From a virus (lineage: Duplodnaviria > Caudoviricetes): DNA of 34,528 nucleotides. The stretch spans positions 1 to 34,528 of IMG/VR virus record IMGVR_UViG_3300028030_000037. One strand, 5' to 3'. The notes beneath the pieces are model-generated. The model ran no database searches. It had not been told where the DNA came from and saw only the letters and a list, made by a program, of their open reading frames with translations. Positions 14,816 to 34,528 of this stretch are shown in pieces (positions within the stretch are counted from its first letter, which is position 1; the number at the start of each line of letters is the position of its first letter). The position numbers and the translations under genes are program-made.

Positions 14816-15793
14816 ATGGCCTGGCTACCAATAGCGCAAACTGTCCCGCAATACACCTCTTCTGGTGAGCCTGCTGCGGGTTATGTTTTAAAATTCTACG
14901 CAGCTGGAACTGCAACTAATATTGTCATTGCAACTGATAACACTGGTGGCACTACCGCAACTGACGCATTATTGAACGCAGATGGCTATCCAGAGGTTAC
15001 AGGATCAGTTTTTATCCCACACATAGACCAATCCTATAAAGTTGTTTTGTATCCATCACAGGCGGCAGCAGACAGCGATACAGGGTCTGTTTGGTCTGTA
15101 GATAACTTAACTCCTCCGGTTAATACGGTTAACTCAGTTGACGAAAAGGTAAAAGTATCAAGTAACGATACAACAGCAGACACGCTTGATAGCAAGGTCG
15201 TATCAGGAACAAACATCAATGTGACTGAAAACCTAGACGGCGCAAATGAGAATCTAAGCGTAGATTTAAAATTGACGGCTGATGTAGTACCGGAAACAAC
15301 GTCGGCAATTGATTTAGGAACAGTGACAAAACAATTTAAAGATGCGCAGTTCAGCGGGACTTTAACTGTAGACACTGCTTTTTCAGGGGCAGCATTCTTA
15401 GACGAAGATGATTTAATATCTGATAGCAATACAAAAGCAGCTAGTCAGCAATCTATAAAAGCATATATTGATTTGAAAACAGGCGGTCTTAACACAAAAA
15501 TAATTGATATTGGCGACTGGGATATGGATGCAACATTATCAGTATCAATACCTCATGGTTTAACATATTCTAAAATAAGGAGCGTCAAGGCGTTAATTCG
15601 TAATGATGCAGACTCGGCTGTATATGATTTTTCTTCAGTAAATAATGCAGTGACAGAAACAGCAGGAAACTTTGTTTATGCGACAGTAACAGACGTTGCA
15701 ATAACTAGGGCGACGACAGGATTTTTCGATTCAACAGGATTCGATAGTACATCTTATAATCGTGGCTGGATTGTAATAAGGCATATTAACTAA
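14816..15793 (+). CDS. Tail fibre/spike-related protein
   Basis: N-terminal ~100 aa paralogous to the next gene (virion-binding domain). Confidence 0.65.
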   Translation: MAWLPIAQTVPQYTSSGEPAAGYVLKFYAAGTATNIVIATDNTGGTTATDALLNADGYPEVTGSVFIPHIDQSYKVVLYPSQAAADSDTGSVWSVDNLTPPVNTVNSVDEKVKVSSNDTTADTLDSKVVSGTNINVTENLDGANENLSVDLKLTADVVPETTSAIDLGTVTKQFKDAQFSGTLTVDTAFSGAAFLDEDDLISDSNTKAASQQSIKAYIDLKTGGLNTKIIDIGDWDMDATLSVSIPHGLTYSKIRSVKALIRNDADSAVYDFSSVNNAVTETAGNFVYATVTDVAITRATTGFFDSTGFDSTSYNRGWIVIRHIN

Positions 15794-17943
15794 TGGCATA
15801 TCTACCAATAGCTCAAACAGTACCGCAATACTCTAATAACGGTGAGCCAGCTTCAGGCTATGTCCTGAAATTCTATGCCGCTGGAACATCGACCGTTATC
15901 AATTCAGCGACAGATAACACAGGAGCAACTCTGTTAAGCGATATAGTGCTAAATGCAGATGGCTATCCAGATCAGTCTGGCTCTATCTTCATTCCGCATA
16001 TAGACCAAGAGTACAAATTAGCATTATATCCTTCACAGTCTGCTGCTGACTCAAACACAGGCGCAACATGGTCTATCGATAATCTAGCTGCTGCGGTAAA
16101 TGCTGACACAAACAGCCAAGTTCAAGTATCAAGCAATGATGCGACACCAGGTTATTTGAACGGTAAACTCGTTGTAGGTTCAGGGATAGGGTTAACAGAG
16201 CAAAATGATGGCTCAGACGAAAGCCTTTTAATTACTAATCCGGTTAAAATTTATGACACTTTGGCTTTAATGGTCGCAGACGTTGCCAATATCTCTATTG
16301 GCGATTCTATAACACTGGATGGACGGAATACGAAAGGCGATGGCGGCGGGGCTACTTGGCGCGCAGTTGATGCTACCTTGGTTACGACTAATGGATATAA
16401 TATTGTAGCTGGAAATGCTACGGTTGCTTTTCAACTTTACACCAGTTTAATCCCATTCAGTCAGCATACCGTTATCCCCGCTCAGTGGGGCGCAGACGTA
16501 ACAGGTGCAACAGATTGCACTAGCGAAGTACACGCAGTTAGAGACTATGCAAAATCTTCTGGTGCTAACGTATATTTTACCAGAGGCACTTATCTCGGAA
16601 ACTTTGATTTTCAAGGCTTAAACGCTTCTCAATGGCAGAATCTTGTTATCTACGGTGACGGTATTAATACTGTGCTTAAACGTAATTCTGCACTGTCGCA
16701 GGTGCTTAGAGTTCGTGGTGAGTCATCTTCCGGTGATATGAGATACCCGCATGTATCTAACTTGATGATCGACGGTAACGGTAGCTCTACATCACCAGCT
16801 TTTGAAATCAATTATTGCCAAACCCCACAGGTAGAGAACGTCTATTTTCAGAATTGCCATAATGCAATGTTGATGGAAACTAAGGTTTATGATGGTTCTT
16901 TAACTCACGTCATATTCCGCGATCCAGACAGAACAGCGGCTGATGGCTACGCATTAAAACTTGGCGATAGCTGCAATTACATTACTATTGACGATTCTTA
17001 TTTCATCGGCCCAGGTGATGCTAATAAACACACATTGCTGTATTGCTCAGGACCGAATGATGCGCCAGGGTATCATCGGATTATAAATTCACAGTTTGAA
17101 AACTCGTCACATCCAATTACTTTAGAGGATGTTCGCGGCATCGTTCTTGATAACAATCATATCGAAGGACACGGGGCATTGACGACTGGCACGGCTGAGT
17201 TTCATGGAATTACAATTAAACCTGTTACCAATGGTGGCGCAAGTGCTTTCGGCTCTGGAATGGTTATCACTAATAATAAATTCTGGGGGAAATCATCCAC
17301 TACGGCTTTTGATGCGTTTATCAATATTGATCTCGATAGTGCTGGGCAGACTGAAACAGAGGATTTATTCGCTGGGTGGGTTGTTGAAGGCAACACTTTC
17401 GGAACGTCTGCGACGCAAGGCGGCGATGCTTATGGCACAAAGGCTGCTATCAGCTTAAAGGCATTTAGTGCTAAAGGACAAGTGTTGAGGTTAGGCAGTA
17501 ATAACTGGCACGCTAACGGCGCATCAGGTGGAGTGTTGAGAACAGATTTTATACTGACGCCTGCTAACACTGCTGGCAACTATGCCAGGTATACTCTTGA
17601 TAATGAGTCGCCTTTGTATGACCTATGGCTAAGTGGATCGAGAGAGATAGCAACACTTAACAAGGCTATGAGTGGTGGTATTATCACCACAGAGAACGCA
17701 ACTGCAAACGGATCACTGACCCTGCCTAGCGCATTGAAGAACATGGAGTACACTTTTATTGTGTCTGAGTCCTACTGGCTTGAGTTAGACCCGGCAACAG
17801 GTGAGAGATTTAGATTAGCTTCTGCTGCTGATAAATACATCCGTTCGTCAGGTTCTAGTGGCGATACGTTGAAGATATATTGCATCGAGGATGGAATATG
17901 GGATGTTGCATATTCACAAGGAACATGGACATATCAAGTCTAA
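15793..17943 (+). CDS. Tailspike with right-handed beta-helix (pectate lyase-like depolymerase)
   Basis: GDGGGA.W, WGADVTGATDCT, VYF.RGTY and IYGDG..TVL motifs followed by beta-helix repeats. Confidence 0.85.
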   Translation: MAYLPIAQTVPQYSNNGEPASGYVLKFYAAGTSTVINSATDNTGATLLSDIVLNADGYPDQSGSIFIPHIDQEYKLALYPSQSAADSNTGATWSIDNLAAAVNADTNSQVQVSSNDATPGYLNGKLVVGSGIGLTEQNDGSDESLLITNPVKIYDTLALMVADVANISIGDSITLDGRNTKGDGGGATWRAVDATLVTTNGYNIVAGNATVAFQLYTSLIPFSQHTVIPAQWGADVTGATDCTSEVHAVRDYAKSSGANVYFTRGTYLGNFDFQGLNASQWQNLVIYGDGINTVLKRNSALSQVLRVRGESSSGDMRYPHVSNLMIDGNGSSTSPAFEINYCQTPQVENVYFQNCHNAMLMETKVYDGSLTHVIFRDPDRTAADGYALKLGDSCNYITIDDSYFIGPGDANKHTLLYCSGPNDAPGYHRIINSQFENSSHPITLEDVRGIVLDNNHIEGHGALTTGTAEFHGITIKPVTNGGASAFGSGMVITNNKFWGKSSTTAFDAFINIDLDSAGQTETEDLFAGWVVEGNTFGTSATQGGDAYGTKAAISLKAFSAKGQVLRLGSNNWHANGASGGVLRTDFILTPANTAGNYARYTLDNESPLYDLWLSGSREIATLNKAMSGGIITTENATANGSLTLPSALKNMEYTFIVSESYWLELDPATGERFRLASAADKYIRSSGSSGDTLKIYCIEDGIWDVAYSQGTWTYQV

Positions 17944-19573: not shown

Positions 19574-19665
19574 TGGTAGTTGGGGCGAGACTCGAACTCG
19601 CATCAGCCGATTATCTGTCGTTACGGGTTATAAACCCGCTGCTCTACCAGTTAAGCTACCCAACC
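19574..19665 (-). tRNA. tRNA-Ile, anticodon UAU, long variable arm, encoded CCA
   Basis: Minus strand: acceptor GGTTGGG/CCCAACT-A-CCA, D arm GCTT..AGAGC, anticodon stem GCGGG-TTTATAA-CCCGT, T arm GCGAG-TTCGAGT-CTCGC. Confidence 0.85.
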
Positions 19666-19697: not shown

Positions 19698-19746
19698 ATA
19701 TAACAGGTCGATGAACCAGACGGAGCTGGCTATCTAGTTGTTAGAT
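19698..19746 (+). mobile_element. attC-like site (short, 49 bp)
   Basis: ATATAAC...GTTAGAT ends with an internal imperfect palindrome GATGAACCAG/CTGGCTATC. Confidence 0.65.
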
Positions 19747-19748
19747 TA

Positions 19749-20081
19749 CTAATCACGCCAATTATCACACCAACAATCAGGTGTTATCTCTTTTATGAAT
19801 TCAGTAGTGATATGCGTATGTATTACATCAGGTGATGATTCTTCCGATTCATCTGCAAAATAAATAAGTCTTACAGAATCTTTTTTACCATCTTCAATTA
19901 GCACCTTTTGTATGTCTTTATTAAAATCCTCAAGTGCTGAATATCTTTTTAACTCTGTATAACTAGCCCAGTAATCTCTATCGAAATCAATTAACCCATC
20001 ATATTTATCTGTAAACCATTTAGGCAATTCATCTTTCTTCATTACCATTGTGTCGCTTATTACTTGGTGTCTGTAACCCAT
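19749..20081 (-). CDS. Cassette-borne hypothetical protein
   Basis: 110 aa, AGGAG RBS, bounded by GTTAGAT (19740) and ACCTAAC (20109). Confidence 0.8.
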   Translation of the reverse strand: MGYRHQVISDTMVMKKDELPKWFTDKYDGLIDFDRDYWASYTELKRYSALEDFNKDIQKVLIEDGKKDSVRLIYFADESEESSPDVIHTHITTEFIKEITPDCWCDNWRD

Positions 20082-20108
20082 TTCATTCTCCTATAATTAT
20101 TAAAGTAA

Positions 20109-20154
20109 ACCTAACAATACGCGCAAGGCGCTATCGCTCGGACTCGCTGCGCTC
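20109..20154 (+). mobile_element. Truncated attC-like site
   Basis: From TAAC onward it matches the reverse complement of the 27787 site with one mismatch, but lacks the distal arm. Confidence 0.75.
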
Positions 20155-20365
20155 TAATCATTAAACCAAATAGTCCAAACACTCACTAACATAATCAGGC
20201 TGAAACGGTGTGGATTCCATCACATCAACCTTATGACCTATGTCAATTTGTATCCGAACCATAGAGAATAACAAACTTACAGCGATCAGTAAAAGCACTG
20301 TTACCGTTTTCGATGCTTGCGGTTCTTCCTCGCCTTCGTCTTTTCGTACTGTCTCCACGGGTGCA

Positions 20366-20750: not shown

Positions 20751-20800
20751 GTTTCTGTCTAATTCACCATCTAAAGATTCTGTCTAGTTAGATGTTATGT
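20751..20800 (+). mobile_element. attI-like site
   Basis: GTCTAGT-5 bp-GTTATGT simple site; TTCTGTCTA repeated directly at 20753 and 20778. Confidence 0.65.
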
Positions 20801-21031
20801 GTATTGCACTTTGCCGTTACCATTATCATCCAGAACGTAACGGAATGCGCCCCAGTTCATAGCCATCAATTCGCAGTCGTCATCAAATACCTCCAGGAAA
20901 TTTCGCAATTCTCCGACTGTTGCAGGATGTAGCAATTGGTGATCTGTGTGTATTGGATCACGCCTTTCGCAAATGCAATTAGAGCATCGATATTCGAATT
21001 CTTTATCATTTAATGGGCATTCATGTAACAT
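20795..21031 (-). CDS. Cassette-borne Cys-containing hypothetical protein
   Basis: 78 aa; stop lies in the att core; cassette ends GTTATGTGT/ACACATAAC are complementary. Confidence 0.8.
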   Translation of the reverse strand: MLHECPLNDKEFEYRCSNCICERRDPIHTDHQLLHPATVGELRNFLEVFDDDCELMAMNWGAFRYVLDDNGNGKVQYT

Positions 21032-21067
21032 ATTTCACCTATAAATTGTCGAGTAGTGATTTCAAAC

Positions 21068-21128
21068 ACATAACAATCAATTTCAACGGAGCGCAAAAAC
21101 CGCGCCCGCTGAATAATGGTCGTTATAA
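21068..21128 (+). mobile_element. attC-like site
   Basis: ACATAAC...GTTATAA with an internal hairpin (CGG-A-GCGC/GCGC-CCG). Confidence 0.8.
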
Positions 21129-22539: not shown

Positions 22540-22589
22540 GTTTCTGTCTAATTCTTGATTTAAAGATTCGGCCTAGTCGGATGTTAGCC
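22540..22589 (+). mobile_element. attI-like site
   Basis: GTTTCTGTCTAATTC identical to 20751-20765; GCCTAGT-5 bp-GTTAGCC. Confidence 0.65.
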
Positions 22590-22623
22590 GCACATAGCTA
22601 AAACCTGTGCGGCGAAAAGAAAT

Positions 22624-22893
22624 TCAAAATAATAATTCATTAAGCCGTGAAATACGCTTACGGGCGTCTTCCGTTTTTTCCATAATAGCTCCGGCACCGC
22701 CATCTAGGATGTCTCTAAGAGTAGGAAGCGACTCTTTTTCTTTTGCGAATTCATGATCTGTTGGTGACGGCCCTTCGATTCTGTGTATTAGATCATCGAG
22801 TTGTTGTGAAATAGTGCCAATTTGTTGAATGGCATCATGTATTTCGATGTGTTTTTCTCTTCTTATTGCTTCGTTGCTAATTTGTTCAATCAT
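22624..22893 (-). CDS. Cassette-borne coiled-coil hypothetical protein
   Basis: 89 aa; cassette ends GTTAGCCGC/GCGGCTAAC. Confidence 0.8.
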   Translation of the reverse strand: MIEQISNEAIRREKHIEIHDAIQQIGTISQQLDDLIHRIEGPSPTDHEFAKEKESLPTLRDILDGGAGAIMEKTEDARKRISRLNELLF

Positions 22894-22919
22894 AATTATA
22901 CCTTTACTTTAATTGCAGC

Positions 22920-22988
22920 GGCTAACAAGTCATTTCACAGGACAGCGTTCCGCTGCGCTCCACTTGCCTGTAAATTCGGTCGTTAGCT
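22920..22988 (+). mobile_element. attC-like site
   Basis: GGCTAAC-AAGTC-ATTT[C]ACAGG...CCTGTAAAT-TCGGTC-GTTAGCT: 5/6-nt spacers and an unpaired base in L'' as in canonical attC. Confidence 0.88.
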
Positions 22989-23219
22989 AGTAATATCCCC
23001 AAAAGGTCTAAATATCTTATAGTGGCCTTTTTTATTTCTGGTTACTAATTTCTGTTTAACCATTTCTTTGCATACCGGAGAGCCAACTGAGCTGTGACCA
23101 CCATTTATTACCCGTCCAATCTCGGTTGGTGAAATCCAATCTCTACCCTCCCGCTGAGAAACACCATTCATGTATCGAATTGCTATATCTATTTTTTCTT
23201 GCATTTTCATTAAAATCAC
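22983..23219 (-). CDS. Cassette-borne winged-helix-like protein
   Basis: ISPTEIG...S.VCKEMV..KLVTR..KGHY; cassette ends GTTAGCTAG/CTAGCTAAC. Confidence 0.7.
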   Translation of the reverse strand: MILMKMQEKIDIAIRYMNGVSQREGRDWISPTEIGRVINGGHSSVGSPVCKEMVKQKLVTRNKKGHYKIFRPFGDITS

Positions 23220-23237
23220 CTATCTCGTTTAAATTCT

Positions 23238-23300
23238 AGCTAACAATACGCACCAGCGGAGCGCTAAAACCGCGCTCGCTGTTGTGCTCGGTCGTTATAC
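23238..23300 (+). mobile_element. attC-like site
   Basis: AGCTAAC-AATAC-GCACCAGCG...GTGC-TCGGTC-GTTATAC; homologous to the 27398 site. Confidence 0.85.
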
Positions 23301-23359: not shown

Positions 23360-24124
23360 TCATTTCTTACTTAAAATATCTGCCAGAATATTCTTGTATT
23401 GCCTTTTAGCACCTACTGGAATATCCGAGCCAAACATATTAATCACAGCAATATATTCATCGTTTGACAACCGCTTATACGCCTCATGGTACTTATCATA
23501 ATCTTCTGAATCAGAATCAATAAGACTTCTGAAATAAGCGTTGGCTTTTTGAATCTTTTTAACATCAAGCAACTCACCAGAAGTCTCACCAATAAGAATT
23601 GGTACTCTATTCCACTGAAACCGAACACGTCCGTTATAATCAGTTGCCTTAAGACTATCTAGTAAGCCGTCTTTAAAAGATGATTCCCAGCGCCACAAAT
23701 CAAGACGCAATTCCCATGATTGATGAAACTTGCCATTACGCTCTTGATACTCATTTTTGAACAATTTAACAGAGATTCGCGGGTAATCGTAAAGCTCAAG
23801 ACCGATCCCCCAGTTAAAACAGGCTCTCTTGAATGAATCGGATGCTAGACCTTTCTGAGCTTCAGCCATTGACTCTGTACCTGTATCCTCCTTAGAAACC
23901 CAATGCTTTCTATCTTCGTTCCAGATAGAAACTGTGCAATTGTGGTTATCCCTCGAATGCTCACGCTTCCATCCAAGTTGACCGCAAATATCATTAAGCC
24001 GATTAATGTCAACCCTGGCATCCTTGTACGCAAGGATAGTCGCATACCCGCCGTTATTGATAGACTGAATGCGGAAGTCTATTTGGTCGATTGTAAGCGG
24101 TTTAGTTAGATTCTTGATATCCAT
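23360..24124 (-). CDS. Rad52/Rad22-family (Sak-like) single-strand annealing protein
   Basis: AYKDARVD..RL, CTVSIW, WVSKEDTGTES and KG.ASDSFKRACFNWGIG motifs; likely start MDIKNL at 24124. Confidence 0.85.
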   Translation of the reverse strand: MDIKNLTKPLTIDQIDFRIQSINNGGYATILAYKDARVDINRLNDICGQLGWKREHSRDNHNCTVSIWNEDRKHWVSKEDTGTESMAEAQKGLASDSFKRACFNWGIGLELYDYPRISVKLFKNEYQERNGKFHQSWELRLDLWRWESSFKDGLLDSLKATDYNGRVRFQWNRVPILIGETSGELLDVKKIQKANAYFRSLIDSDSEDYDKYHEAYKRLSNDEYIAVINMFGSDIPVGAKRQYKNILADILSKK

Positions 24125-24205
24125 CTTCTTCCTCACTATACTCTGGTTCTGGTAACGCTTCGTCTGTTTCCGGTACATTCTCTAAGTACCACTCGCCCAT
24201 CTTGC

Positions 24206-24586: not shown

Positions 24587-24611
24587 GAATCTGTAGATAC
24601 CACTGTTAGCT
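24587..24611 (+). mobile_element. Weak attI-like site
   Basis: TCTGT-N9-TGTTAGCT, same spacing as the other attI-like sites, but no second repeat. Confidence 0.4.
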
Positions 24612-24902
24612 TTGTAAATCAGTTTCTTTTAAGTTCCTCACGATTTCAAGCATATTGCTAACATTCCGAATATTTTTTTCAGCCACCTCTATTGCTTTTT
24701 TATTATTGTCAAGTTTCTTTGTAAGCAATTCTACGAGCTTCATTCTCGCATCTTCAAAAATATCAAAATACCATTGCCAGTTTGTTTCTTTTCTTTCAGC
24801 TATTTTGTTTTTAAAATAAACTGTTTTTTCTGTTTCCCTTTCAACTTCTACCATTTTTATTTCATTTAAGTTAATAGTATTAACTTTATATTTCGTTATC
24901 AT
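24606..24902 (-). CDS. Probable cassette-borne hypothetical protein
   Basis: 98 aa, AT-rich, stop in the GTTAGCT core. Confidence 0.75.
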   Translation of the reverse strand: MITKYKVNTINLNEIKMVEVERETEKTVYFKNKIAERKETNWQWYFDIFEDARMKLVELLTKKLDNNKKAIEVAEKNIRNVSNMLEIVRNLKETDLQS

Positions 24903-24925
24903 TTCTTTTACCCTGTAAATTAAAG

Positions 24926-24965
24926 AGCTTCACTGCGTTACGCCTTTTTAATTCGGGCGTTAGCT
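24926..24965 (+). mobile_element. Truncated attC-like site (left arm lost)
   Basis: AGCT joined to ...CACTGCGTTACGCC...TTCGGGC-GTTAGCT. Confidence 0.55.
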
Positions 24966-25739: not shown

Positions 25740-26033
25740 ATGCCTTCTCGCACCCCAAAACAAAACCGAGCATACTGGAAGTATCTGCGCTCTTTAGCGG
25801 ATGATCTGAATGATGCCGGTATCGACTTTAAAACGTCTGTACGACTTCCTGTGCGGTTTACTGCTGAGAACATGCACGAGTATATGTTCACGCCAGTTAT
25901 GCAGTCTTTATACCCTGAAAAGAAGTCAACGACTGAGCTATCAACTGTAGAGATGCAGGAAGTCTACGATACGTTTAATGCTGCTGTAGGTCAGCGGTTT
26001 GGAGTTAGCCGTAACTGGCCTAGTAATAGATAA
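25740..26033 (+). CDS. NinB/Orf-like recombination protein
   Basis: RT.KQN..YW and STT.LS..EM motifs. Confidence 0.65.
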   Translation: MPSRTPKQNRAYWKYLRSLADDLNDAGIDFKTSVRLPVRFTAENMHEYMFTPVMQSLYPEKKSTTELSTVEMQEVYDTFNAAVGQRFGVSRNWPSNR

Positions 26034-26101
26034 CGATTGAGCGTACTTGAAATTTATGGAGCGAAGCGGAATAAAATTTCCAGTAGCGCGACTTGTTAGC
26101 A
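26028..26101 (-). mobile_element. attC-like site
   Basis: Minus strand TGCTAAC-AAGTC-GCG[C]TACT...AGTACGC-TCAATC-GTTATCT. Confidence 0.85.
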
Positions 26102-26111
26102 AGATTTTAAT

Positions 26112-26359
26112 TTAGACGCTCTGCCGCTGCGGACACCGAAGATGGCAACACCGGCAACAGAGCTGAGCTGAGGGAAACAAGACGCGAAACCCATTGGATG
26201 CACAAGTAGCGATACGCGCCCGAATAGAACCGGGACTCCCGTTAGGCGGGGATAGCGAAAAATGCGGCAGGATGGGCAATTTGACTGTGACAGGTAATGC
26301 TGGCGACGAGCTTGACCGAATCAGAGGCGGTAACTAGGTTTACCGGGCAGAGCGTCTAA
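26112..26359 (+). ncRNA. Candidate structured ncRNA inside a cassette
   Basis: Perfect 14-bp inverted repeat TTAGACGCTCTGCC/GGCAGAGCGTCTAA around ~220 nt with no ORF of 60 aa or more; strand inferred from the operon. Confidence 0.5.
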
Positions 26360-26376
26360 CTTAGGAGAGAGCAAAT

Positions 26377-26517
26377 ATGAAAGAATTAGCCAAGAAAATA
26401 CTATGCTTGATTCGTCCACTAAAACCGTGCCGGGTTGATGATTGCTATGTGTACACTGCCCGCAGAGACAAAAACGGGCAGCCTTACTGCTCGGTTTGCA
26501 GAGATGAATCTTGCTAA
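26377..26517 (+). CDS. Small Cys-rich protein (46 aa, not in ORF track)
   Basis: AGGAG RBS; MKELAKKILCLIRPLKPCRVDDCYVY...YCSVCRDESC; stop in the att core. Confidence 0.7.
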   Translation: MKELAKKILCLIRPLKPCRVDDCYVYTARRDKNGQPYCSVCRDESC

Positions 26518-26599
26518 CTGACAGAGTTTAACGGGCGCATAGATATTGAGCTACGGAGCACGCTGGTTTAGCGCTCCGTTTTAGAACGCATTATTATAT
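26512..26599 (-). mobile_element. Degenerate attC-like site
   Basis: + strand TGCTAAC...ATTATAT (core G replaced by A); internal ACGGAGC/GCTCCGT stem. Confidence 0.6.
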
Positions 26600-26624
26600 T
26601 ACGATATTTTACGAGGAGTACAAA

Positions 26625-26843
26625 ATGAAAGATATTCTTACTGTTGTTTTTGGTGGTGTTGCGATTTCCGTACTAATAATCGCTCTGTTTTTAATTGGGC
26701 CTATTCTAGTTTTATGGGTGATCAACAGCCTTGCAGAGGCTGGCGGATTATCATTTTATATAGAGCACAATATGTGGAATTACTGGGTTGCTTTTATTCT
26801 ACTACTGTTAGTCAGGGGTGGCTCAAGTAGTAGCCGTAAGTAA
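26625..26843 (+). CDS. Cassette-borne small membrane protein (two hydrophobic helices)
   Basis: 72 aa, GAGGAG RBS. Confidence 0.8.
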   Translation: MKDILTVVFGGVAISVLIIALFLIGPILVLWVINSLAEAGGLSFYIEHNMWNYWVAFILLLLVRGGSSSSRK

Positions 26844-26914
26844 TATAACGCCAGAGCTGTGCTGACGACACGAAGCGCAGCGTAGTGGTGGTCAGAACGA
26901 GCGAATTGTTATAA
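26843..26914 (-). mobile_element. attC-like site
   Basis: Minus strand TTATAAC-AATTC-GCT[C]GTTC...GCACAGC-TCTGGC-GTTATAT. Confidence 0.85.
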
Positions 26915-26932
26915 CTACGTTTGGTAAGAATT

Positions 26933-27391
26933 ATGGGATATGCAGAAAATACAAGTGTAAGCACAGAAAAAAGTAGGGCTGAAATTGAACGAACTTTGCA
27001 GAGATACAATGCCGACCAGTTTATGTATGGCTGGGATGCGGATAAAGCTGTGGTGGGTTTTCGTATGGCCGGAAGACAGATTCGTTTCTTGCTGCCAATT
27101 CCAGACAAAGAAGATTGCCGGTTTACCCATACACCAACTGGCAAGGTACGAAAGCAGAACGCCGCATACAACGAATGGGAGCAAGCCTGCCGCCAAAAAT
27201 GGCGAGCACTGAGTCTTGTTATTAAAGCAAAACTGGAAGCTGTTGAAGCTGGTATTGCAATATTTGAAGATGAATTTATGGCAAACATCGTGCTACCGAA
27301 CGGTGATACAGTAAGCCAATTCATGCTGCCGCAGATCGCCGCAGCGTATGACCAGGGCGAAATGCCGAAGATGCTGCCAGATTTACGGTAG
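26933..27391 (+). CDS. Cassette-borne conserved phage hypothetical protein
   Basis: YA..T.VS..KS..EI...L and WRAL.L.IKAKLEAVE.GI..FE.EF motifs; cassette ends GTTATAACTAC/GTAGTTATAAC. Confidence 0.85.
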   Translation: MGYAENTSVSTEKSRAEIERTLQRYNADQFMYGWDADKAVVGFRMAGRQIRFLLPIPDKEDCRFTHTPTGKVRKQNAAYNEWEQACRQKWRALSLVIKAKLEAVEAGIAIFEDEFMANIVLPNGDTVSQFMLPQIAAAYDQGEMPKMLPDLR

Positions 27392-27397
27392 TAGTAG

Positions 27398-27457
27398 TTA
27401 TAACGACCCAGCACAGCGAGCGCGGTTTTAGCGCTCTGCTGGTACGTATTGTTATAA
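27398..27457 (-). mobile_element. attC-like site
   Basis: Minus strand TTATAAC-AATAC-GTAC[C]AGC...GCTGTGC-TGGGTC-GTTATAA. Confidence 0.85.
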
Positions 27458-27478
27458 CGATTTTAATTTGGAGAAACT

Positions 27479-27781
27479 ATGAGTTTATTTCAGTGTGAAA
27501 TCTGTGGATGTGTAGAGAATACAGCCACATCATCTCAAGGCTGTACAGGCGGAATGGAACGACTTTTCGACTGGACGGGCTTAGAAGATTTAAAAGGGAA
27601 AAAACTTTGTAGTGTTTGCGCGCCAAGAATTTATCGTGACGGTACGAGCACATGGTTTGGGAGGTGGCATGGAGAGTTTAAGCGAACGTTTTTACCGAAG
27701 GGAAAATTTAAAACAAACAGGCAAGGTAACCTTGAACACATTGAAACAGGTGAAACAGATTACAGAAAATATGCAATCTGA
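27479..27781 (+). CDS. Cassette-borne Cys-rich hypothetical protein
   Basis: MSLFQCEICGCVENTA...LCSVC...WH..F; cassette ends GTTATAACGA/TCGTTATAAC. Confidence 0.85.
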   Translation: MSLFQCEICGCVENTATSSQGCTGGMERLFDWTGLEDLKGKKLCSVCAPRIYRDGTSTWFGRWHGEFKRTFLPKGKFKTNRQGNLEHIETGETDYRKYAI

Positions 27782-27786
27782 TTTCG

Positions 27787-27856
27787 TTATAACGACCAGA
27801 GCGAAGCGGCGAGCGCAGCGAGTCCGAGCGATAGCGACTTGCGCGTATTGTTATGT
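27787..27856 (-). mobile_element. attC-like site
   Basis: Near-identical to 31299-31368; TAAC...GTTAT ends with GCG[C]AAG/CTTCGC arm. Confidence 0.85.
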
Positions 27857-27878
27857 GTATATTTTTGGAGATTAGGAA

Positions 27879-28148
27879 ATGACTAATTTTATTGGCTTAG
27901 TTTCTGAGTTAGCTGGACGCAATGACATATCAATGAAACCAGAAAAAGAGATTGATTTTGGAAATCTGAATATAGAAATGCTTGACAAACAAGCTCGCCG
28001 GTTAGCAGATAATGAAGTTTTCGTTTTTATTGATGGAGAAGAGTCAGAAAGTGACGAAATCACAGAAAAGCATGGCCTTGAAGAACTCAATAGAGTATTA
28101 AACAGAATTTTTGATGGTGAACTGTATGAAAAATTTTATTACACATAA
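27879..28148 (+). CDS. Cassette-borne acidic hypothetical protein
   Basis: 89 aa; cassette ends GTTATGTGTA/TACACATAAC. Confidence 0.8.
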   Translation: MTNFIGLVSELAGRNDISMKPEKEIDFGNLNIEMLDKQARRLADNEVFVFIDGEESESDEITEKHGLEELNRVLNRIFDGELYEKFYYT

Positions 28149-28192
28149 CATCTGGTTATACCGAATCACAAAATAGTGAAATAGACAGAAAC
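28143..28192 (-). mobile_element. attI-like site
   Basis: Minus strand GTTTCTGTCTA...GATTCG-GTATAAC-CAGAT-GTTATGT. Confidence 0.65.
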
Positions 28193-28211: not shown

Positions 28212-28454
28212 ATGCCAAAATGGAACAAACCAGAAACAGCGCCTAGAAACGGCCATCTGGTCTTTGCCAACTTAGGATGGCCGTGGCCTATTACCGCCTG
28301 CTGGAACGAATACGAGCATAGATGGGTTTATGCTATGGCTCAGTTAAACATAGTGGATAGGCAGGAAGACCCATATTTTGAAAACGAGTATGCGGAAGAT
28401 AGCGAGCTATTGGGCTGGTTGCCGCTTCCAGATGTTAACGAGGTGAAGAAGTGA
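28212..28454 (+). CDS. DUF551-like phage protein
   Basis: W..PETAPRNG at the N-terminus and W.PLP at the C-terminus. Confidence 0.7.
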   Translation: MPKWNKPETAPRNGHLVFANLGWPWPITACWNEYEHRWVYAMAQLNIVDRQEDPYFENEYAEDSELLGWLPLPDVNEVKK

Positions 28455-28633
28455 GCATATTAGAACGATTAAATTATTATAATGGTCGTGTTCTTGAGCT
28501 AGATGTTTCTGTCGATAAAAAGACTGTTAATTTAATGGAGCAATGTGACCAATATTTTAGCGTCGATTTAACTAAAGAAGAATTTGGCAAACTGATAAAA
28601 GAACTAAATCAAATTTACGACAGCATGGAATAG
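28451..28633 (+). CDS. Hypothetical protein
   Basis: 60 aa, GTGA coupling, GAGGTG RBS. Confidence 0.7.
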   Translation: MSILERLNYYNGRVLELDVSVDKKTVNLMEQCDQYFSVDLTKEEFGKLIKELNQIYDSME

Positions 28634-28786
28634 AATGAAATATATCTGCTATCGCTGCCTACAGGTTATGGATATATCAGAACTTCGACCAGGTGCAAAG
28701 ATGAAAGGGCTTTCTGTAGAGTTAAGCAGAAAGATTAAAATGTGCAAGTCTTGCAAGTGCAGGACGTTTTATAAAATAGGTGATAT

Positions 28787-28978
28787 ATGAATGAAAATGA
28801 ACCGATCAGCATCCGACCAGTGGATAATGGGTTTATTGTTACAAAAATTTACGGTAATAGTAACGGTGAACTAATCTCTGACAAGAGTATTAAAGTTTTC
28901 AGGAGCATGAATGAGTTATGCAGATTTATTCAAGAACACTTTGAACATCGTGGGCTGTGTATTGAGAGTGACACATAA
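28787..28978 (+). CDS. Hypothetical protein
   Basis: 63 aa, I.I..V.NGFIV motif, AGGTG RBS. Confidence 0.75.
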   Translation: MNENEPISIRPVDNGFIVTKIYGNSNGELISDKSIKVFRSMNELCRFIQEHFEHRGLCIESDT

Positions 28979-29173
28979 ACATACCGCATAAAAAATAAAC
29001 CCCGACTTGATCGAAAAACCTAGTCGGGGTATTATTCAAGGGTCGGAGTTAGCAGCTCCTACAAAATCAGGTTTTAACGGAACCGATTCATAAGTTAAAT
29101 CTTATCAATCCCTCCAGAAAAATCAAGTTTTCTTATAGTTGCTGCTTTAATTTGTTACTTTTGTTAACACTTT

Positions 29174-29983: not shown

Positions 29984-30050
29984 TTGATAATCAGAGAGCG
30001 TTGCACTTCCTGCGGTAGATTAGACAAAAAGATAATTAAAGGTAAGTGGT

Positions 30051-30278
30051 ATGAACAAAATAACAGTTAAAATAAACGGTAAACTAAAAAAGTGTGACAA
30101 CCATTTTTCTGATCACAAAACCAGCTCTCAAGATATGCTTTCTGGTAATAAAATGGCGGATGAAATAGGAGATTTATATATTGATCATAGAATTAACTTG
30201 CCAGAAGTTCAATGGATGCAAGTTATGAAAGCGTTACGGATACATGGTTTTAAAATTACTTTTGTGAGGAACAAATGA
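30051..30278 (+). CDS. Hypothetical protein
   Basis: 75 aa in the operon direction. Confidence 0.65.
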   Translation: MNKITVKINGKLKKCDNHFSDHKTSSQDMLSGNKMADEIGDLYIDHRINLPEVQWMQVMKALRIHGFKITFVRNK

Positions 30279-30481: not shown

Positions 30482-30725
30482 TATAACAATGTGCAGCTCT
30501 CGGCTATGCCCAAGACGCGAGACTTGCTATCGGGTAAGTGCAAAGCATAGCTTATGGCAGGCATGGTCTGATTTCTTTCGGCCGGAATGTCAGTGCGATA
30601 TGTTTATCAAGGCAAAGGCTGAATGCGAGGAAACAGGCGTACACTGGCCGGTGTTTAATCCGACAGACAATCAAGACTATTGCGAGACGTGTGGGAAGCG
30701 GATGGTCGATATTAATGCTAAATAA
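30474..30725 (+). CDS. Cys-rich phage protein
   Basis: MADITMC....CP....CYR motif; stop in the att core. Confidence 0.75.
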   Translation: MADITMCSSRLCPRRETCYRVSAKHSLWQAWSDFFRPECQCDMFIKAKAECEETGVHWPVFNPTDNQDYCETCGKRMVDINAK

Positions 30726-30793
30726 CGATCAAGTGTCACCGGATTTCATGGAGCGCAGCGGAATGAAAATCCGTGTGTACGCGCTTGTTATGT
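30720..30793 (-). mobile_element. attC-like site
   Basis: AAATAAC...GTTATGT; shares the ATGGAGCG.AGCGGAAT core with the 26028 site. Confidence 0.8.
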
Positions 30794-30812
30794 TGTTTTT
30801 TGAAATTATCTC

Positions 30813-30850
30813 TTGAGTTATTAGTAACGCAGTGTATTATTACTAATAAC
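30813..30850 (+). promoter_or_regulatory. Cassette-internal promoter with operator-like inverted repeat
   Basis: TTGAGT-16-TATTAT overlapped by the perfect 11-bp inverted repeat GTTATTAGTAA/TTACTAATAAC. Confidence 0.6.
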
Positions 30851-30880
30851 AGTGATAAACACGCAAAAGGGGGTAAGGAA

Positions 30881-31147
30881 ATGTTTGAACAAGATTTTGA
30901 CAATATGTTTGCTGACGTTTGGTTTGATGAGCGTGATTGCGCATACGCCTATGAGGAAGGTATAGGTGAGTTTGATGCTGGGGCCAATACCATGCACTCC
31001 AATGATGCGGTTATCGCTGTTCGCAAGTATGACCGCGCCCTCCGTGGTACGCATTATGCAGGCAAGCGTAACCGCCTCCGCGCACAGCGGAATAGTTTGG
31101 TTACTGCCTTTGGGCCGGAAATGGTTGAGCGCGTTGGTTATGACTAA
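30881..31147 (+). CDS. Cassette-borne hypothetical protein (88 aa)
   Basis: Start MFEQDF after TAAGGA. Confidence 0.7.
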   Translation: MFEQDFDNMFADVWFDERDCAYAYEEGIGEFDAGANTMHSNDAVIAVRKYDRALRGTHYAGKRNRLRAQRNSLVTAFGPEMVERVGYD

Positions 31148-31304
31148 GCGAAAGACGGCAAGCACCAAAGATGGTGCTTGCCGTCAAGCGAAATTTAGAA
31201 AAGAACAAAAGAAACTTGGCAGGCGCGGAAGGCTGTATTACTTGACCGATGAGGAAAAAGAGATGGTGGATTCGTTTTTGTACAAGCTACGCGAATCGCC
31301 ATAA
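31140..31304 (+). CDS. Small basic putative DNA-binding protein (54 aa)
   Basis: MTKRKT...RQAKFR...GRRGRLYYLTDEEKEMV, RHH-like layout; stop in the att core. Confidence 0.6.
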   Translation: MTKRKTASTKDGACRQAKFRKEQKKLGRRGRLYYLTDEEKEMVDSFLYKLRESP

Positions 31305-31368
31305 CGACAAGAGCGAAGCGGCGAGCGCAGCGAGTCCGAGCGGTAGCGACTTGCGCGTATTGTTATGC
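31299..31368 (-). mobile_element. attC-like site
   Basis: Two internal mismatches relative to 27787-27856. Confidence 0.85.
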
Positions 31369-31393
31369 GTAATTTTTTACTTTAGAGGTAGAT

Positions 31394-31657
31394 ATGTGCA
31401 ACTGCAAAAACATGGCCGGCTACGGCGACGATAGCTGGGGAAAACACCACCACATAGCCTGCGAAAAATACGCCACAGAAAAGAACCCCTACCTGTTTTA
31501 TTACGAGGAAGGTGTTGAGGCATGGGTTCCCGTACCAGAAAAAACTGAACATTTAATTGTTGTCGACGATCAGCTAGATAATGATGAACGAATGCAACTT
31601 TATTTTAGACGAATAGACATGACCGACAAACAAATTGCAGAAATGCCTTGTGATTAA
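31394..31657 (+). CDS. Cassette-borne hypothetical protein
   Basis: 87 aa, GAGG RBS; cassette ends GTTATGCGT/ACACATAAC (8/9 complementary). Confidence 0.8.
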   Translation: MCNCKNMAGYGDDSWGKHHHIACEKYATEKNPYLFYYEEGVEAWVPVPEKTEHLIVVDDQLDNDERMQLYFRRIDMTDKQIAEMPCD

Positions 31658-31658
31658 C

Positions 31659-31683
31659 ACATAACATCTATTTAGACAGAAAT
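31659..31683 (-). mobile_element. attI-like site (single unit)
   Basis: Minus strand TTTCT-GTCTAAA-TAGAT-GTTATGT. Confidence 0.6.
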
Positions 31684-34289: not shown

Positions 34290-34517
34290 ATGAGCGAGAT
34301 TCTAAAAACCGTAGCAACAGCCGCGCCGACTAGCTGGGTCGTTTCAGGCACGACAACGGTGACAGGTGTTGCGGCAGAGTATAATTTATTTGACTGGATA
34401 CCTGACGACATTGGTAAATTGGCATCATTGGTTGGTTTGGCGTTAGCTGGATCATTACTATATTACCGGATTCTGGTTATCAGGAAACTGCAATTAGAGT
34501 TAAAACAAAACGATTAA
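34290..34517 (+). CDS. Small membrane protein, possibly holin-like
   Basis: 75 aa, hydrophobic segments and a basic tail. Confidence 0.6.
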   Translation: MSEILKTVATAAPTSWVVSGTTTVTGVAAEYNLFDWIPDDIGKLASLVGLALAGSLLYYRILVIRKLQLELKQND

Positions 34518-34528
34518 CAACCGCTTGA
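34408..34528. repeat. Terminal direct repeat/assembly overlap, right copy
   Basis: Matches 1-121 with one mismatch. Confidence 0.95.

Follow-up and report, generated by a model that had tools for sequence, protein, structure and literature searches.

The phage genome examined here carries integron-type gene cassettes of reversed polarity at several attI-like sites, and the integron integrase (IntI) of its host probably inserts and excises them during infection. The window (the whole stretch of DNA analysed; 34,528 nucleotides, positions 1 to 34,528 of IMG/VR record IMGVR_UViG_3300028030_000037) corresponds to contig C138 of genome bin G000. A terminal repeat of 121 nt (1–121 and 34408–34528) indicates that the phage genome is complete and circular, with a length of 34,407 bp; it was placed in a bacterial bin. 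Both sequencing runs with this DNA are labelled hydrothermal vent metagenome. The phage encodes a terminase, a P22-like portal, a capsid protein, a helicase, SSB, a Rad52/Erf-like protein, NinG, and an endolysin, and its early genes are divergent from ~25.6 kb. Cassettes occur in four arrays (A to D) and at two further positions (E and F). None of the 13 matches to the tyrosine recombinase family (PF00589) in the bin falls on C138, and the phage contig has no match to the resolvase/serine recombinase family (PF00239).

Cassette-specific complementarity of ends, first proposed in a sequence-only reading of array A, was confirmed. All eight end pairs listed in that reading are present where it had placed them. 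With coordinates given as the G of GTT and the C of AAC, and lengths as perfect complement, the pairs in array A are 26095/26518 (12 bp), 26908/27404 (11 bp), 27451/27793 (10 bp), and 27850/28149 (10 bp); the remaining pair, 26593/26849, is complementary at 9 of 10 positions, its first base being A instead of G. Elsewhere, pairs of 9 bp each are found at 20794/21074, 22583/22926, and 22982/23244, and the match is weaker in three more cassettes (30787/31305, 3/6; 31362/31665, 4/6; 19740/20115, 3/6). A permutation test scored positions 5–10 of the ends, with the invariant core excluded. Among the five array A cassettes, 30 of 30 positions match (mean 14.8), and only one of the 120 possible orders, the real one, reaches 30. 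When 11 cassettes are scored together, 55 of 66 positions match against a mean of 25.5, a value reached by none of 500,000 random assignments. Perfect pairs of at least 9 bp spaced 150–600 bp apart number eight between 19.5 and 32 kb, one of which is a by-product of a palindromic end, compared with a mean of 0.52 (maximum 3) in 300 dinucleotide shuffles; there are none in the structural region (1–18 kb). The two ends of a single hairpin had been described as usually matching each other less well; they match at 0, 2, 5, 2, 3, and 3 of 6 positions. In 9 of 10 cassettes, all but B-b, the junction formed by circularisation in silico, a check suggested in the sequence-only reading, was more stable than the integrated form. 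This gain also appears when the opposite polarity is assumed, and the comparison was dropped as a guide to polarity because both polarities improve. Matched ends by themselves do not reveal the recombining strand. They are an ordinary trait of integron cassettes, so what makes this phage interesting is its polarity, landing sites, and cargo. The first cassette on bin contig C615 also has matched ends (9 bp). Within arrays, R'' may differ from the variable bases of R' (PMC5371416; this and the other papers are cited from the accessible parts of their text); in the circular form of the phage cassettes, R' and R'' are complementary.

The hairpins have the anatomy of attC sites, including an imperfect stem, an AAC/GTT core, a 5-nt spacer, and strand asymmetry. 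The coding strand folds better than its complement in both arms (10 of 10 hairpins), which identifies it as the attC bottom strand. A bulged C in L'', after the 5-nt spacer on the antisense strand, is seen at 5 of the 10. In all 11 phage cassettes the gene lies on the attC bottom strand (canonical polarity, 0/11). The preference of IntI for the attC bottom strand is what fixes cassette orientation (PMC5027507). An attC model was built from nine phage sites and, with only eight base pairs, is chiefly a sequence profile; it has matches in 14 of the bin family's 29 other genomes. As a control, 23 of 26 bacterial matches were examined, and 20 of these have an open reading frame (ORF) ending beside R'', with 18 of the 20 on the top strand. 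The attC family found in relatives of the binned bacterium includes the phage hairpins. Followed in the direction of its genes, each array opens with a full hairpin (upstream end) and closes with a hairpin-free site (downstream end), and each hairpin therefore belongs to the gene that follows it. This corrects the earlier reading. The G|TT crossover sits on the non-coding strand, so that in array A the crossover falls at AA|C, where each hairpin has its left end (26033|26034, 26517|26518, 26848|26849, 27403|27404, 27792|27793, and 28148|28149). The GTT ends that had been listed on the + strand are R'' boxes, the hairpin travelling with the downstream gene.

Ten matches to the attC model lie in the window, nine of which are its training sites, and no intI gene is nearby, consistent with an attC cluster without an integron-integrase (CALIN; at least two attC sites). 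C138 has no match to PF00589 or TIGR02249; a complete integron would have an intI gene beside the array. There is likewise no integron promoter (Pc) reading through attI into the cassette genes, which face the landing site. A promoter scan gave 24 matches against 34.1 in shuffles, that is, below shuffle level, and did not locate promoters. These are real integron-type cassettes, a CALIN by definition, and neither a complete integron nor of canonical polarity.

The four hairpin-free array ends (20751–20794, 22540–22583, 28149–28192, and 31665–31682) align as one family. In attI sites, an inverse L box lies 5 bp upstream of G|TT. An inverse box (5–6 of 7 positions matching RYYYAAC) stands 5 bp before G|TT in all four landing sites, a score reached by 8% of 392 GTTA sites in the window, and three of the four have a second copy of the box ~25 bp upstream. 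Judged by sequence, the geometry is attI-like, and the attI candidate on bin contig C130 has the same arrangement of the inverse box. For comparison, attI1 has L, R, and direct repeats, according to a figure legend (Fig. 4, PMC9892861). The word GATGTTA occurs seven times in the genome, and four of these are the occupied array ends of this one sequence family. In arrays A, B, and C, the core at the far end is at the same time the stop codon of the resident gene (26031–26033, 30723–30725, and 21123–21125). The site that received cassette E (19698–19743) falls outside the four-site family. With an inverse box at 5 bp and a slight resemblance to a hairpin, it is perhaps a decayed attC. The cassette F site scores 3/7 on the inverse-box test.

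Contigs of related phages from a second study (run X2) show gain or loss of these units at the core. One joint connects 19743 to 20170 with 6 letters between them, the length expected after loss of 19741–20160 (the cassette E gene and its hairpin). At cassette F, 334 other letters stand in place of 24609–24957. On a contig with a depth of 12.7, the gene left of array A is followed by an intact attC, cassette E, and a further attC, an order that puts cassette E into another array on that contig, at array A's far end. Another X2 contig has a different attC at that end. The search for the same cassettes in other orders, proposed in the sequence-only reading, has therefore found one cassette absent at the crossover, one replaced, and one in another array. 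Its central claim, that the units are integron cassettes and not terminators or repetitive extragenic palindromic elements (REPs), is supported by the loss exactly at the crossover and by other units at the same sites in relatives. X2 joints also skip 28447–29050, 30042–30275, and 30628–31680, of which only the last touches a cassette array. Run X1, possibly the source sample, gave no such joints. Five loci besides the phage's own record hold relatives of the gene left of array A, and the three viewed have no array. The attC model had no match in the 8 of 23 capsid relatives searched with it, and a strict array detector found no array over 350 loci. A chain detector applied to 482 loci and the window flagged 20; besides the window and its own record (L357), those judged real are L356, L400, and L416, with L244 also a real array, more weakly. 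Pattern scans of viral contigs (landing-site pattern, attC end pattern, and a 16-mer) returned mostly chance matches and were set aside. A 20-mer attC pattern had one genome match.

Bin G000 has three matches above cut-off to IntI (TIGR02249), one of them split in two frames, and 16 of 30 genomes of the bin's family have an IntI match. A complete-looking chromosomal integron of normal polarity lies on C615 (14251–16353); its first cassette likely encodes an O-methyltransferase, judging by its sequence. Because no recognisable recombinase gene is present on the phage, we propose that host IntI acts on its sites, the phage likely borrowing the host's integron enzyme for cassette exchange. The coding strand would fold into the recombining hairpin, and IntI, supplied in trans by the host, would cut it at AA|C. 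The released circle, consisting of hairpin, ribosome-binding site, and gene, would then re-enter at a double-stranded landing site, at G|TT on the non-coding strand. Since in three of four arrays the core of the empty site is the stop codon of the upstream resident gene, insertion would keep the resident gene intact. The new gene would land within a phage operon and be read from phage promoters; the landing sites are oriented against transcription, so reversed cassettes would enter in line with the operon. A normal host cassette in a phage site would lie the wrong way round and remain silent; a phage cassette in a host integron would face away from Pc. If this is true, phage and host share one enzyme and keep two separate gene pools. 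More speculatively, the phages may maintain a mirror-image cassette pool on the host integrase, in which phage genes become cassettes where a stop codon supplies the core, and polarity silences host anti-phage cassettes in the phage and phage cassettes in the host; we regard this larger scheme as possible and somewhat doubtful. Alternatively, reversed polarity might be of benefit by letting the coding strand fold more easily during replication or transcription. A lagging-strand effect on folding has been described (PMC8946536). Cumulative GC skew merely tracks the coding strand here and gives no location for the replication direction.

Several observations weigh against action by host IntI at dedicated sites. 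The host link is weak, binning with G000 being the only one; no 25-mer is common to C138 and the other contigs; the phage attC model finds no other attC in G000; and neither an excised circle nor a recombination event was observed. The bulge grammar is unclear at 5 of 10 sites, and the coding strand read as top strand fits better at 27791 and 31303. The four landing sites are homologous, and hence not independent. Their motif had no match in the inspected regions upstream of intI (18 loci from the bin's family), and a search for it in 30 family genomes stayed at control level; the C615 attI candidate scores only 1/7 on the inverse-box test. The X2 joints come from short contigs with 80–85% likeness in one run, and several have sides of only 31–45 nt. 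Joints with sides near that length are weak singly, and the empty site (side of 127 nt) and the replacement (219 nt) are firm. A recombinase other than IntI, Xer-like and encoded by the host or a helper element, would account for the lack of the landing-site motif beside intI in the bin's family. This is improbable given that the hairpins match the attC family of a bacterial family with IntI in 16 of 30 genomes, and that IntI1 recombined sites of the cultured phage H101 (PMC9892861).

The phage's own Rad52/Erf-like annealing protein (23360–24178) could also swap genes between similar hairpins. Under such a scheme, IntI would have placed the cassettes once, and present exchange would be homologous recombination between hairpins or landing sites. 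The 92% likeness of the hairpins at 27791 and 31303 and the three decayed attC sites (26516, 20113, and about 24905–24959) are in its favour. However, the empty site loses gene and hairpin at the 3-bp core without long homology, and eight cassettes retain matched ends of 9–12 bp, which swaps inside hairpins would tend to scramble; we consider this origin of present exchange unlikely. Similarly low odds attach to insertion at chance secondary sites (attG, GWT), with the array ends being a regulatory motif of the phage in which GTT occurs by chance. IntI can insert genome-wide at GWT (10.1101/2022.09.11.507474), the four landing sites lie in 5' leaders of resident genes, and the site of cassette F has the low score given above. 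Chance does not readily explain why array ends take up four of the seven GATGTTA words, all with one polarity relative to transcription and an attI-like inverse box. The hairpins are also repeated, intergenic, and on the coding strand, as would suit terminators, REPs, or RNA processing signals among fixed genes. Cassette-specific end matching, variable content in relatives, lack of an Rfam match, and membership of the attC family make this reading very improbable, and as a main explanation it is refuted by the end matching and the relatives' content. The hairpins may have a secondary effect on mRNA.

Array A consists of five cassettes on the – strand in the attC sense, with genes on +. Cassette A-a (26034–26517) has its attC at 26032–26097, followed by ~280 nt of non-coding DNA and a 47-codon ORF (26377–26520). 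Its non-coding part (26110–26362) is closed by a 14-bp perfect inverted repeat and folds at −84.8 kcal/mol (z −2.4); it has no Rfam match and no match in cultured phages, and RNA cargo is possible. Cassette A-b (26518–26848) has a decayed attC (26516–26595; R'' GTT changed to ATT) and a 72-aa ORF (26625–26843) whose product is hydrophobic on inspection. Cassettes A-c (26849–27403; attC 26847–26910) and A-d (27404–27792; attC 27402–27453) carry genes for 151 aa (26936–27391; phrog_17260) and 100 aa (27479–27781; phrog_11861). The last, A-e (27793–28148; attC 27791–27852), carries an 89-aa gene (27879–28148) whose stop codon is the core TTA read backwards. Landing site A (28149–28192, –), attI-like with the inverse box 5 bp before G|TT and the repeated box further upstream, doubles as the 5' leader of the gene at 28212.

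Array B (30726–31664, –) comprises cassettes 30726–31304, with two ORFs, and 31305–31664 (attC 30724–30789 and 31303–31364), and ends at a short-form attI-like landing site (31665–31682, –) immediately before the NinG gene. A 54-aa ORF in B-a (31140–31304) resembles NF041430 UrfF (E 6e-10, below cut-off). In the other arm, cassette elements lie on + and genes on –. Attached to attI-like landing site C (20751–20794) is cassette C (20795–21122; 78-aa gene, attC 21072–21124), and attI-like landing site D (22540–22583) is followed by array D (22584–23294), with cassettes 22584–22982 and 22983–23294 and attC sites 22924–22984 and 23242–23296. Cassette E (19741–20160) has a 110-aa gene and a decayed attC (20113–20162), and cassette F (24606–24959) has a 98-aa gene and a decayed attC (about 24905–24959). 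A tRNA-Ile gene with a TAT anticodon (19574–19665, –) lies just past cassette E. A tail-region protein (15793–17943) shares 74% identity over 563 aa with a gene on bin contig C103, and C103 has no match to the terminase, portal, or capsid of this phage.

Two cargo families are ordinary phage genes elsewhere. For phrog_17260, none of 77 viral homologues (of 78; one partial sequence was excluded) has matched ends of at least 8 bp. The A-d family, phrog_11861, is present in 39 cultured-phage records, and its flanks in two of them, H1 and H7, have no cassette ends. Five of its six viral loci were read, and one, L356, has the cassette form with 10-bp ends, within a row of nine cassettes ending at a hairpin-free GATG|TT site. 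Polarity in L356 was assigned from end motifs by eye, and the folding energies point to the coding strand at just 3 of 6 sites; in L400 and L416 the attC model matches lie on the coding strands. The cassette proteins tested had no Pfam match and nothing above cut-off in PADLOC or NCBIfam, and Atlas placed the cargo in unnamed, mostly viral clusters. The A-d protein was confirmed in none of 600 candidates from genome contigs, and the cassette E protein in none of 38 from viral contigs. Another locus (L009, 5657–6714) has a long attC and a 939-nt ORF on the top strand, in normal polarity and opposed to the neighbouring phage genes.

A phage with several landing sites and reversed cassettes would turn a host adaptation tool to its own use. 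Integrons are described in recent preprints, as far as their accessible text goes, as stores of anti-phage genes, and de novo cassette formation as largely unknown (PMC5371416). The occurrence of two cargo families as plain phage genes elsewhere makes parent and cassette forms comparable. If cassettes are indeed made from recognisable parent genes, cassette origin is open to direct test, with H101 as a model; this phage is in culture, and IntI1 has already recombined its reversed sites (PMC9892861). The window, for its part, supplies natural empty, swapped, and moved alleles.

Phage attC clusters have already been published. Among 10,705 phage genomes, Qi et al. 2023 (PMC9892861) identified 17 integrase-free attC clusters, and five of six tested phage attC sites were recombined by IntI1, the bottom strands recombining with attI1. 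We found no account of reversed phage cassettes in the literature searched, which left subscription journals largely outside, and the accessible text of PMC9892861 makes no mention of antisense, opposite, or reverse genes; reversed polarity was thus not found in print, though H101 shows it. In H101, the coding strand carries the attC bottom strands, and gp134 belongs to a reversed cassette (between record positions 76579 and 77314) with 10-bp matched ends that adjoins a tested site; the two intervals neighbouring gp134 had no matched ends in the same scripted check. Phage TJE1 has canonical polarity, and the two tested sites of phage P12002L point opposite ways. The canonical array of TJE1 also begins at a GATG|TT word, inside a feature annotated as a terminator. 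The phage CALINs of that study are, like this phage, attC arrays without intI. Its accessible text suggests illegitimate or homologous capture, whereas IntI in trans is proposed here, and describes no repeated landing sites in virulent phages, which this phage has.

With bacterial integron arrays (PMC5027507, accessible text) this phage shares attC anatomy, a 3-bp core, matched ends, single-gene cassettes without promoters, and, read in the top-strand direction, an attI-like site where the array starts. Integrons are understood to place cassettes such that the integron promoter reads the gene (PMC5027507). Unlike them, the phage has no intI on the element, carries its genes on the bottom strand, and spreads at least four landing sites over two divergent arms, with cargo that includes ordinary phage gene families. 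Insertion at attG and single attC sites lacking integron-integrases (SALINs; Loot et al., 10.1101/2022.09.11.507474) also involve cassettes outside an integron and IntI in trans, as proposed here. Compared with the attG and SALIN sites of that preprint's accessible text, the phage targets differ in forming a conserved, repeated family of one polarity that is reloaded with different cassettes.

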